The notes beneath the pieces were generated by a model. The model worked only from the letters and a program-made list of their open reading frames with translations. It searched no databases and was not told the origin of the DNA. Positions 1 to 39,863 of a stretch of DNA of 64,000 bases are shown in pieces. A program made the position numbers and the translations under genes. Numbering within the stretch: position 1 is the stretch's first letter; the number at the start of each line of letters is the position of its first letter. Source of the DNA: Myxococcota bacterium (lineage in GTDB: Bacteria > Myxococcota_A > UBA9160 > UBA6930); assembly GCA_965223415.1 (NCBI GenBank), contig OZ245002.1, positions 4,448,001-4,512,000 of the forward strand. The letters are read 5' to 3'.

Positions 1-540
1 GGCGCCGTAGGCGCGGGCCAGGGCGTCGTCGATCTCGTCGACGACGACGGGCATGCGGATGCGGAGACCGATGGCGCAGCTGGCGGCGGCTTCGGTGCGC
101 TCCTCGGTGGTGGTGGGGTCGTCGAAGGCGATGTCCTCGTCGCGGTTCATGCTGACGACCCAGCCGTCCTCCGGGTGGGCCTCGCGGATGTAGACGACGA
201 CGAAGTCGACCCGGTCGCGGTAGCGCTCCCACTGCTCGTGCAGGGCGCCCAACTGGGCGCGGAACGGCGGTCAGGTATAGGAGCCGAATACGAGCGCCAC
301 GGGACGCTTCCGGGCGGCGCCGTGGAGGTGGAAGGTCTCGCCGGTCTCCCGGCGCACGCCCTCCCTGAAGTCGTAGACCGGGAGCGAGAAGTCGTGGGCC
401 AGATCGGCCGGGGCCAGCTTCGCACGGGTCAGGTCCTGCACCTTGGCGTCGGCGAAGAGGTCCGGCGGCGTCTTCGGCGAGTCGTCCGGGGTGATGGCCT
501 TCCAGTCGAAGCCCTCGGGGAGGATGTCGTCCTGTGCCAT
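1..540 (-). CDS. Iodothyronine deiodinase-like selenoprotein (Sec at TGA 271-273); continues beyond window start
   Basis: ATG at 540. The frame reads ...PVALVFGSYT-TGA-PPFRAQLGALHEQWERYRDRVDFVVVYIREAHPEDGW...MPVVVDEIDDALARAYGA with no further stop to base 1. Matches deiodinase motifs FGSxTUPPF and YIxEAHxxDGW. Confidence 0.93.
245..260 (-). promoter_or_regulatory. Candidate bacterial SECIS hairpin
   Basis: mRNA GCGCCC-AGUU-GGGCGC; loop starts 16 nt after the UGA and has G at loop position 2 followed by U. Confidence 0.75.
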
Positions 541-545
541 TCCGT

Positions 546-552
546 TACTGTA
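546..552. promoter_or_regulatory. Symmetric bidirectional -10 element (TACTGTA)
   Basis: TACTGT on + lies 7 nt before GTG 559; TACAGT on - lies 6 nt before ATG 540; no SD on either side. Confidence 0.6.
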
Positions 553-558
553 GCGCGC

Positions 559-1455
559 GTGCACGCCGCCCTCGCCCAGCTCCTCCAGGTGCTCGATCTG
601 CGTCCGGAGGGCGCCGACGTGTTCGTCGGGAGCAACGAGCCCGGGCGCCACCGCCGGCTCTTCGGGGGGCAGGTGGCGGGCCAGGCCCTGGCCGCCGCGG
701 CTCGCACCGTCGAAGGCCGGCCCGCCCACTCCCTCCACGCCTACTTTCTGCGTGGCGGGGATCCAGAGCTCCCGGTCCGCTACGAGGTGGACCGCATCCG
801 AGACGGCTCGTCCTTCACGACCCGCCGCGTGGTCGCGATGCAGGGCGAGCGGGCCATCTTCAACCTCTCCGCCTCGTTCCACGCGCCCGAGCCCAGCTAC
901 GAGCACCAGGCGCCGCTGCCGGCCGTGGTCGGGCCCGAGGGCCTGCCCACCTGGGAGGAGCGGGCCCGCGACGTCGAGTTGCAGATTCCCGAGCCCGCCC
1001 GCGGCTGGCTCACGAACGAGACCCCCATCGAGATCCGCACGGAGCATGCGCCCAGCTGGTTCGCCCGCCAGCCGACGGCGGGCCCCAACACGGTCTGGCT
1101 CAAGGCTCGAGGTGAGCTTCCGGACGACCCGCTGCTCCACCAGTGCCTGTTCGCCTACGCCTCGGACATGGGCTTCGTCGACAATCTCTTCCGTCCCCAC
1201 GCCGGCGGAAAGCGCGACGTGATGATCGCCAGCCTCGACCACGCCCTGTGGCTGCACCGCCCTTTCCGCATGGACGACTGGCTGGTCTCGATCCAGGAGA
1301 GCCCGGCGGCCTACGGCGCCCGGGGCTTCGCCCAGGCCGCCGTCTACACCGCCGACGGAACGCGGGTGGCCAGCGTCGTGCAGGAGGGGCTCCTGCGACG
1401 CATCGGCCAGGAGGCGCTCTGGGACCGTGAGATGGGTGGGCCGCGTCCCGAGTAG
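559..1455 (+). CDS. tesB: Acyl-CoA thioesterase II
   Basis: LFGGQVAGQAL, HSLHAYFLRGGD, RDGSSFTTRRV, YASD, ASLDHALWLH, QEGL motifs; GTG 559 chosen as start. Confidence 0.92.
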   Translation: MHAALAQLLQVLDLRPEGADVFVGSNEPGRHRRLFGGQVAGQALAAAARTVEGRPAHSLHAYFLRGGDPELPVRYEVDRIRDGSSFTTRRVVAMQGERAIFNLSASFHAPEPSYEHQAPLPAVVGPEGLPTWEERARDVELQIPEPARGWLTNETPIEIRTEHAPSWFARQPTAGPNTVWLKARGELPDDPLLHQCLFAYASDMGFVDNLFRPHAGGKRDVMIASLDHALWLHRPFRMDDWLVSIQESPAAYGARGFAQAAVYTADGTRVASVVQEGLLRRIGQEALWDREMGGPRPE

Positions 1456-1469
1456 GACGAAACGGGCGC

Positions 1470-1661
1470 CTAGCTCTCGACGCGCAGCGCCTCTTCCGGG
1501 CAGTTGACGACGGCCAGTCGGGCGCGGGTCTCGTGCTCCGGGGGCACGTCCGGCGCCAGCACCACGCAGTAGCCCTCGTCGTCCTCGCCGAACACGTCAG
1601 GGGCGAGCGCATAGCAACGCCCGTGCCCGACACAGGTCGCGCGGTCGAGGGCCACCTTCAA
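1470..1661 (-). CDS. [3Fe-4S]-type ferredoxin, P450 partner
   Basis: CVGHGRC...CPEEAL; directly downstream of P450. Confidence 0.9.
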   Translation of the reverse strand: MKVALDRATCVGHGRCYALAPDVFGEDDEGYCVVLAPDVPPEHETRARLAVVNCPEEALRVES

Positions 1662-1700
1662 GGCGCCGGCCCCGCGAGGGCCACCTTCAAGGCGCCGGCC
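1646..1700. repeat. 26-bp exact direct repeat (period 29) at the P450/ferredoxin junction
   Basis: cgagggccaccttcaaggcgccggcc at 1646-1671 and 1675-1700. Confidence 0.95.
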
Positions 1701-2895
1701 AGACCAGCGGCAGGTAGGTCACTTCGCGGATGCCCGGGCTGTAGCGCGGCGTCTCGCCGGGCCGGATCGCGTAGCTCGGGATCCGCTCGTGCCACACCTC
1801 CATGGCCACCTGCAGCTCCATGCGGGCCAGGTGGGAGCCGAGGCAGCGGTGGGGGCCCGAGCCGAAGGCCACGTGGCGGTTGCGCTCGCGGCCCAGGTCC
1901 ACCTCCTCGGGGCGCGGGAACTCGCCCTCGTCCACGTTCGCCGCGCCGAGCAGCAGCGTGACCAGCTGGCCCTCCTCGAGGGTCACGTCGTGGAGCGTCG
2001 TTCGCTGCTTCACGACCCGGGGCACGCCGGTGACCGGCGTCTCCCAGCGCATCAGCTCCTCGATGGCCGCCGGGATCAGTGTGGGGTCGGCCACGAGCCG
2101 CTCCCGCTGGGCCGGGTTCGCGGCCAGGTAGGCGACGTTGCATCCGAGGGTCGCGGTCACCGTGTCGAGGCCCGCCAGGATCAGGAGGAAGCTCACGTCG
2201 AGGACCTCTTCGTCGCTGAGCCGCTGGCCGTCGATCTCCGCCTGGAGCAGGTAGGAAAGCAGGTCCTCCCCCGGCCGATCGCGGCGCTCCTTCATCACCT
2301 CGCGGAAGTAGCCGTAGATCTCCGCTCCGGTCTGCTTGCGGTGCGCGACGAGACTCTCGGCCGTGACCTCGCCCTCGACCTGGGCCTGGGGCCGGATGAT
2401 GCCGTCCTTCAGGCGCAGGAAGAAGGGGAGCTCGCTCTGGGGCAGGCCCATCAGGCTGAGGAAGGCGCTGCAGGGCAGCGGGATGGCGAAGGCCGGATCG
2501 AAGTCGCAGTGGCCCTGGCCGAGGAACGCGTCGATGAGCTCGTTGGCCTGCTGCCGCACGGCGGGCTCGATGGCCGTCATGCGCTTCCGCGAGAACTGGG
2601 GATCGAGCAGCTTGCGGAAGCGGGTCTGGGCTGGCGGGTCGATCTGCTGGGGAATCATCGGCCGCTCGGTGCCGAGCATCACCTGCATCTCCATCTCCGA
2701 CGAGAAGATCTCGGGATGCCGCAGGGCCCAGACCACGTCCTCGTAGCGGGAGATCACCGGTCCGTCGGTGAGGGCCTGCCGCGCGACGGGACAGTGGAGG
2801 TTCAGGTCGCGGTAGGTGGCCTGGGGACAGGCGGCGTGCTCGCCGCTGAAGAGGTTGACCGTCCCCGTGCCCCGGTCCAGGTGGGATTCGCTCAT
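1687..2895 (-). CDS. Cytochrome P450
   Basis: AGLDT I-helix, EELMR (ExxR), FGSGPHRCLG heme motif. Confidence 0.96.
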   Translation of the reverse strand: MSESHLDRGTGTVNLFSGEHAACPQATYRDLNLHCPVARQALTDGPVISRYEDVVWALRHPEIFSSEMEMQVMLGTERPMIPQQIDPPAQTRFRKLLDPQFSRKRMTAIEPAVRQQANELIDAFLGQGHCDFDPAFAIPLPCSAFLSLMGLPQSELPFFLRLKDGIIRPQAQVEGEVTAESLVAHRKQTGAEIYGYFREVMKERRDRPGEDLLSYLLQAEIDGQRLSDEEVLDVSFLLILAGLDTVTATLGCNVAYLAANPAQRERLVADPTLIPAAIEELMRWETPVTGVPRVVKQRTTLHDVTLEEGQLVTLLLGAANVDEGEFPRPEEVDLGRERNRHVAFGSGPHRCLGSHLARMELQVAMEVWHERIPSYAIRPGETPRYSPGIREVTYLPLVWPAP

Positions 2896-39764: not shown

Positions 39765-39863
39765 TGGCGGAAGCGGACGGGAATCGAACCCGCCGGAACC
39801 GTGTCGCCACGATTCCCACCGGATTTGAAGTCCGGGCGAGGCACCAGCGCTCGAAACGCTTCC
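39765..39863 (-). tRNA. selC: tRNA-Sec(UCA)
   Basis: 99 nt; GGAAGCG start, long D-stem with TGGT loop, CCGGA-CTTCAAA-TCCGG, long variable arm, TTCGATT, CGCTTCC-GCCA end. Confidence 0.95.

Follow-up and report, generated by a model that had tools for sequence, protein, structure and literature searches.

The gene running off the left edge of the window (the whole stretch of 64,000 nucleotides that was analysed, G000:C1:4448001-4512000, located on a single 5.83-Mb contig of 71% G+C) encodes, with a probability of roughly 95% as judged from sequence comparisons, a 220-residue soluble thioredoxin-fold enzyme of the deiodinase family, in which the in-frame UGA at codon 90 would be translated as selenocysteine (Sec) by means of a hairpin situated just downstream. 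It seems very likely that the gene product is a true selenoprotein of the deiodinase family with the role of a Sec-based redox enzyme, and the gene is a further member of a family that has been known for two decades, albeit one that is mis-called in public data. The features from which the reading starts are the following:

Window 1..540, minus strand: deiodinase-like selenoprotein gene, first 180 of 220 codons (from the sequence, its translation and the whole-genome flank)
G000:C1:4447878-4448000, just before the window start, minus strand: last 40 codons of the selenoprotein gene and its TAA stop
Window 271..273, minus strand: UGA codon 90, predicted to be read as selenocysteine, the catalytic residue in FGSYTUPPF (aligns with the Sec of Dio3 and Dio2)

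The reading frame opens with an ATG at window 540-538 of the minus strand (it begins MAQDDILPEGFDW...), encounters the TGA at window 273-271, i.e., at codon 90 within FGSYT*PPF, and then stays open for 90 more codons, as far as window base 1, after which the whole-genome flank supplies 40 further codons and a TAA, giving a product of 220 residues when the TGA is read through. YIREAHPEDGW occupies residues 117-127 (window 160-192, minus strand). An initial annotation, made from the letters of the window and a list of its open reading frames, had already spotted a hidden frame continuing past TGA 271-273 for 90 codons up to the window edge, as well as FGSYT*PPF followed by YIREAHPEDGW, and all of this is reproduced in the minus-strand translation, with the frame running 40 codons further than could then be seen; as to the numbering, Sec is residue 90, not 89. 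The N-terminal region is acidic (11 D/E vs 5 K/R in the first 50 residues), and neither a hydrophobic N-terminus nor a signal peptide nor a membrane anchor was found in the 220-residue protein, which points to a soluble enzyme, unlike the membrane-anchored animal deiodinases. The “unusual extension” of about 45 N-terminal amino acids that had been described for this gene is thus indeed acidic and anchorless, but it is not unusual, as its DSPxT motif is conserved in the family and the region is modelled with a pLDDT of about 92, both of which indicate an ordered element shared by the family and not a loose tail.

Residue 90 aligns with the Sec position (Cys in the crystal constructs) of Dio3 (4tr3) and Dio2 (9h48), and the codon for it is kept with great consistency. 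In a genome scan restricted to one genome per species, which returned 280 related stretches and from which 80 loci were kept, TGA, the same motif and both conserved coding flanks were present in 80/80, the carriers being, by their record titles, Pseudomonadota (many of them Pseudomonadales and Azotimanducaceae), Actinomycetota (Gaiella and relatives), Chloroflexota, Myxococcota, “Deltaproteobacteria”, Spirochaetota and others. A scan of metagenomes, even though seeded with Cys-form proteins, gave TGA with the flanks in 78 of the 80 loci kept (out of 538 relatives), the other two comprising one TGC and one locus in which the motif could not be located, so that TGA is found in 158/160 close loci when both scans are taken together. 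A TGA conserved in this manner across loci, with conserved coding on both of its sides, lies far beyond chance. Among 301 sampled genomes of the window's own phylum, a match was found in 21, and 19 of the 22 matches contain one TGA. These own-phylum matches are only 41-56% identical, whereas identities of 57-69% are attained by loci with Pseudomonadales, Chloroflexota or “Deltaproteobacteria” in their titles, a gap that may reflect sampling, paralogous clades or transfer.

Farther out, the site is populated by the residue that would be expected, Cys being the usual partner of Sec in homologues. An exhaustive profile-free search turned up 3,449 representatives with E values no higher than 0.001, the best 150 of which were taken, and among the 131 of them covering the site 120 have Cys, with S in three, D in two, W in two, and L, V, A and R in one each. 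Among such distant database homologues with Trp or Ser at the Sec site are P0252 and P0270. The anticipation of the initial annotation that homologues should have Cys or Sec here therefore agrees with what is observed at both distances, i.e., TGA in the close loci and Cys in the distant ones.

A further line of evidence is an RNA element embedded in the coding sequence:

Window 245..260, minus strand: predicted bacterial SECIS hairpin, stem GCGCCC/GGGCGC, loop AGUU at window 251-254 (from folding and comparison)

The predicted hairpin starts 13 nt after the UGA, lies within codons 94-99 and has a 6-bp stem, the spacing from UGA to loop being 16 nt. Bacterial SECIS elements, according to the legend of Fig. 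2 in PMC13188914, have a loop of 3-9 nt with a G among its two opening positions (mostly followed by G or U), a stem of 4-16 bp, a UGA-to-loop distance of 16-37 nt and an energy of -7.5 kcal/mol or lower, and the predicted hairpin falls within these limits, with its AGUU loop (G second, then U), 6 bp, 16 nt and -12.8 kcal/mol. Taken alone, the 19-nt hairpin (-12.8 kcal/mol) has a z of -3.71, a value equalled by 0/200 shuffles, whereas longer stretches fold just like their shuffles in DNA of 71% G+C (z -0.18 for 74 nt and -1.18 for 38 nt); as the fold energy of the long stretches is unremarkable, the case for the hairpin rests on comparison. Such a comparison is informative, as the AGUU-centred loop is kept in 77 distinct homologues on 36 different stem sequences (e.g., GGGUUC/GAACCC, GCUCCC/GGGAGC, GCCGGC/GCCGGC, and 33 others), which is to say that the stems have undergone compensatory changes. 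Synonymous recoding served as the negative control, the scan seeded with Cys forms having given 78 TGA loci and only 1 TGC; the mean contiguous stem measures 5.78 bp in the 77 homologues vs 3.60-4.08 bp after recoding, with a maximum replicate mean of 4.58 bp in 200 replicates. A stem of at least 6 bp is found in 59/77, and the 18/77 falling below 6 bp do so by an ungapped measure, some of them being apparently bulged. Homologues show the hairpin in one or the other of two registers (4-nt or 5-nt loop), so that no more than 71-75% of cells are paired by one consensus structure, for which reason each sequence was scored in its best register; covariation scores in a fixed register are 0.34-0.36 vs 0.17-0.21 in shuffles, the observed values being reached by 0/500. 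Since the hairpin sits inside codons 94-99 (R-x-Q-L-x-x), the variable residues encoded there shift together with the pairing of the RNA.

The genome is equipped for decoding such a codon. The genes selA (497 bits), selB (267 bits) and selD (253 bits) all score above the curated cut-offs, the SelB protein has winged-helix domains 2 and 3, and a tRNA-Sec gene is found within the window itself:

Window 39765..39863, minus strand: tRNA-Sec gene with anticodon UCA, reading UGA (ARAGORN; Rfam RF01852)

The tRNA scores 69.4 bits against RF01852, the gathering score of which is 47. It lies about 39 kb from the selenoprotein gene, with selA, selB and selD far off at 1.92, 1.70 and 0.56 Mb, respectively. 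The three sel genes, which the initial annotation had asked to be looked for in the genome, are thus all there, together with the tRNA. Furthermore, Sec decoding appears to be in use elsewhere in the genome, where 7/14 matches to the AhpC/TSA family have one TGA at the catalytic position (two in the context FTPG*T and five in W*PxC):

G000:C1 48831-49202, minus strand: TGA-bearing peroxiredoxin/thioredoxin-like (AhpC/TSA) gene
G000:C1 1053804-1054022, minus strand: TGA-bearing peroxiredoxin/thioredoxin-like (AhpC/TSA) gene
G000:C1 1320654-1321052, minus strand: TGA-bearing peroxiredoxin/thioredoxin-like (AhpC/TSA) gene
G000:C1 1621435-1621833, minus strand: TGA-bearing peroxiredoxin/thioredoxin-like (AhpC/TSA) gene
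G000:C1 1678180-1678551, minus strand: TGA-bearing AhpC/TSA gene
G000:C1 2980532-2980915, minus strand: TGA-bearing AhpC/TSA gene
G000:C1 4270914-4271303, minus strand: TGA-bearing AhpC/TSA gene

By their sequences, these seven genes seem to make up, along with the one described here, a sizeable redox selenoproteome of the organism. Formate dehydrogenase had also been considered as proof of an active Sec system and was dropped in favour of the peroxiredoxin-family genes, since a search of the genome with the models of the Sec-type enzyme (TIGR01553 and TIGR01591) gave no match above the cut-offs and none with a TGA at the expected place. A weak match to the CMD/AhpD family (22.4 bits) containing one TGA is seen at G000:C1:5147022-5147165 on the minus strand, its context, CFY*TSSH, being unlike the usual CxxU.

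As to the family, the U-translated 220-residue protein matches Pfam T4_deiodinase (PF00837) over residues 75-212 with an E of 1e-30 and 107.3 bits vs a cut-off of 27, so that the profile match put forward in the initial annotation is found well above threshold, whereas the match to AhpC/TSA (PF00578; 25.6 bits) stays just below the gathering cut-off of 26. The NCBIfam model NF038285, “deiodinase family protein”, is matched with 178.9 bits vs a cut-off of 250 and only in positions 190-340 of its 347; with a score below the cut-off and the N-terminal 190 profile positions absent, the selenoprotein is not a member of this equivalog. Its best sequence matches among solved structures are mouse Dio3 4tr3 (E 5e-23) and mouse Dio2 9h48 (E 4e-21), both at about 29-30% identity. 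An AlphaFold model built from 38 family sequences has a mean pLDDT of 93.0 and a pTM of 0.90, and Foldseek, when queried with this model, again places 4tr3 and 9h48 on top (0.70 and 0.81, respectively, as TM-scores normalised to the length of the target), the deiodinase cores being followed by thiol-disulfide oxidoreductases of the ResA/DsbE type and peroxiredoxins. In a quick tree, the window gene is placed in a group lacking resolution, alongside sequences with the labels Myxococcota, Spirochaetota, Chloroflexota and Pseudomonadota.

Two further elements of the active site can be read from the alignments:

Window 160..183, minus strand: EAHPEDGW, residues 120-127, at the edge of the deiodinase-specific insertion (from the Dio3 alignment)
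Window 76..78, minus strand: Cys155 codon, candidate resolving cysteine (invariant in 157/157)

Glu120, His122 and Trp127 match Dio3 Glu200, His202 and Trp207, the Dio3 numbering having been derived from the alignment and cross-checked on His202 and Trp207, which are named in PMC11592359. Ser87, Tyr88, Thr89, Sec90, Pro91, Pro92, Tyr117, Glu120 and His122 are invariant in 157/157 distinct family sequences, as are Pro123, Trp127, Asn132, Pro142, Arg148, Cys155, Asp168, Arg184 and a GPxGF turn. The residues corresponding to Ser87, Thr89, Tyr117, Glu120 and His122 constitute the proton relay of deiodinases as given in PMC11592359, where the counterpart of Trp127 appears as the stacking partner of the relay His. 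The presence of Tyr in place of the proximal Cys, pointed out in the initial annotation, is correct and is a trait of the whole family rather than of this protein (Tyr88). Cys155 is located on the helix after the insertion, and a Cys at the equivalent position is found in 99/131 distant representatives, 96/131 having both cysteines. Dio3 Arg275, which clamps the substrate, the distal Cys239, and His219, third histidine of the relay, in turn, are not conserved, being aligned with Pro200, Met163 and Pro142, respectively. This loss of thyronine-binding residues speaks against thyroid-hormone-like substrates without pointing to the actual one, and thyroid hormone is unlikely to be the substrate.

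The following course of events may be envisaged. SelB carrying Sec-tRNA(Sec) would be recruited by the in-frame hairpin 13 nt after the UGA, and the ribosome would insert Sec instead of stopping; Sec90, placed where the first helix begins and supported by a hydrogen-bond network of Ser87, Thr89, Tyr117, Glu120, His122 and Trp127, would attack an electrophilic substrate; Cys155 would then resolve the oxidised selenium with the formation of a selenenyl-sulfide, to be reduced by thioredoxin or another thiol, a route known from atypical 2-Cys peroxiredoxins and put forward for the animal deiodinases. Such a Sec90/Cys155 redox cycle, drawn by analogy, is considered reasonably probable, and Cys155 may instead be structural and not resolving.

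What the substrate of such a cycle would be can only be ranked tentatively, with a peroxide or another small oxidant placed ahead of a halogenated aromatic compound and the remainder being left to other kinds of thiol-dependent reduction. That the protein is one more peroxiredoxin-like enzyme, i.e., a selenium-dependent peroxidase or a general thiol oxidoreductase, is a possibility to be entertained with some reserve: the AhpC/TSA match just short of its cut-off, the ResA/DsbE-type oxidoreductases and peroxiredoxins coming next after the deiodinases in the fold search, and the pairing of Sec90 with Cys155, a two-cysteine pattern typical of atypical 2-Cys peroxiredoxins, are all in line with it, but peroxiredoxin-family genes are already there in the genome, seven of the Sec type and several of the Cys type, and peroxide reduction is not known to involve the conserved deiodinase insertion.

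In another reading, the enzyme would be a cofactor-free reductive dehalogenase, its Sec90 abstracting, after the manner of the animal deiodinases, the halogen from an iodinated or brominated aromatic other than a thyronine. In its favour are the retention of the deiodinase-specific insertion and of the Ser/Thr/Tyr/Glu/His/Trp network equivalent to the Dio proton relay (PMC11592359), as well as the almost exclusive use of Sec in the subfamily (158/160 loci). It is nevertheless judged improbable, given that the substrate clamp Arg275 and the relay histidine His219 of Dio3 are not conserved and that no characterised bacterial member was found in the literature searched. Many carriers are marine by their record titles, and the marine environment is rich in organohalogens, but the gene is also found in soil Actinomycetota, and the 81 loci compared for their surroundings offer no recurring neighbours related to dehalogenation. 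A bolder version, a long shot argued likewise from analogy, would have the UPPF clade consist of true cofactor-free reductive dehalogenases of natural iodinated or brominated aromatics, with Cys155 replacing the resolving cysteines of the animal enzymes; were it true, this clade would provide a bacterial working model of the chemistry later recruited by animals for thyroid hormone.

More generally, no gene family recurs in more than 7/81 loci (by a crude clustering of open reading frames in 3-kb flanks), and therefore no operon clue is to be had from the neighbourhood. In the window, the selenoprotein gene stands alone, with an amidohydrolase gene converging on its end and an acyl-CoA thioesterase gene diverging from its start:

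Window 559-1455, plus strand: acyl-CoA thioesterase II-like gene (Pfam match; GTG start inferred)

Between the inferred GTG of the thioesterase gene and the selenoprotein gene's start at 540 on the minus strand there are only 18 bp (window 541-558), which would place each promoter inside the other gene, unless the mRNAs are leaderless. Further on, at window 1470-2895 on the minus strand, a cytochrome P450 gene is followed by the gene of a small single-cluster 4Fe-4S ferredoxin, forming a P450-ferredoxin pair, and nothing in the window ties this pair to the selenoprotein.

Readings that leave codon 90 without Sec fare far worse than any of the above. That the TGA is a true stop, leaving either a gene that is broken or a pair of separate small ones, with 89 and about 124 residues, is how gene callers treat the locus (the public protein collection for this genome holds only a 124-residue C-terminal piece, P0003, starting after the TGA, and such C-terminal pieces make up 109/120 of the best database matches), but it is scarcely credible, as a pseudogene would not keep the TGA, the frame and near-invariant residues on both sides of it in 158/160 loci from many phyla, and as the two halves, neither of which has the catalytic residue, together make one thioredoxin fold (model pLDDT 93). 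Equally hard to credit is a readthrough of the UGA as Trp, Cys or another standard residue, for which one could invoke the closer database homologues with Trp (two) or Ser (one) at the Sec site and the Trp in 2/131 distant representatives, but against which stand the Cys found in 120/131 of the sense-codon relatives, the full Sec machinery and the SECIS-like hairpin. Residues such as these had been named in the initial annotation as the kind of observation that would tell against Sec; for the three closer proteins concerned (P0006, P0038 and P0004), TGA occupies the site in the nearest relatives at the DNA level (77-83% identity), and the Trp/Ser forms are, to go by the DNA of these relatives, probably gene-caller readings of TGA under another code. 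The preferred reading of codon 90, i.e., Sec, is left as the one with which the loci, the hairpin and the machinery all agree.

The 124-residue entry P0003 also demonstrates that gene callers do truncate the gene, just as the initial annotation had foreseen for automated pipelines, and the problem extends well beyond this genome, with hundreds of relatives being stored as fragments too (109/120 of the best matches), which renders a widespread selenoenzyme largely invisible to such pipelines. Among bacterial proteins, this family stands closest to the animal deiodinases, and a soluble member of 220 residues, encoded in a complete genome with the full Sec machinery, would lend itself well to a first biochemical study.

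The family per se is not new, and the novelty implied in the initial annotation (which itself called such proteins known) does not hold, as bacterial deiodinase-like selenoproteins have been in print since 2005, when Zhang, Fomenko and Gladyshev first reported them from the Sargasso Sea together with Cys homologues and bacterial SECIS elements, suggesting a redox function unlike that of the animal deiodinases (PMC1088965). The GOS survey of 2008 counted 22 Sec and 21 Cys sequences, its table giving no motif (PMC2398784), and the reviews of 2022 and 2026 still list the family, with UxxC as its motif, as one without known function (PMC9312934, PMC13188914); the literature search performed here found no experimental study and no characterised substrate of a bacterial member. 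Like the bacterial deiodinase-like selenoproteins described in these sources, the window protein belongs to PF00837, has Sec at the active site, Cys homologues and a SECIS element just after the UGA, but unlike the UxxC given in the reviews, it shares with all 157 close relatives a UPPF that lacks a Cys at +3. What appears to go beyond the published accounts cited here is the near-exclusive use of Sec in the subfamily, the invariant second cysteine, Cys155, and a SECIS hairpin constraining both the RNA and the protein sequence at residues 94-99.

With the animal deiodinases Dio1-3, the window protein shares the fold, the Sec position, FGSxTUPPF, YIxEAHPxDGW and the Ser/Thr/Tyr/Glu/His/Trp network, and it differs from them in having no N-terminal membrane anchor and in possessing an invariant Cys155 of its own, from Dio1 and Dio3 in the Tyr that takes the place of the proximal Cys, and from Dio3 in not conserving His219, Cys239 and Arg275; the SECIS element, in addition, is an in-frame bacterial hairpin here and a 3'-UTR element in the animal genes. 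Its likeness to NF038285 is confined to the C-terminal catalytic domain (profile positions 190-340). Atypical 2-Cys peroxiredoxins resemble it in the thioredoxin/peroxiredoxin-like fold, the beta-hairpin at the N-terminus, the nucleophile where the first helix begins and the presence of a second conserved Cys, whereas the PxxxTxxC motif of peroxiredoxins is replaced by GSYTU in the window protein, which also contains the deiodinase-type insertion.
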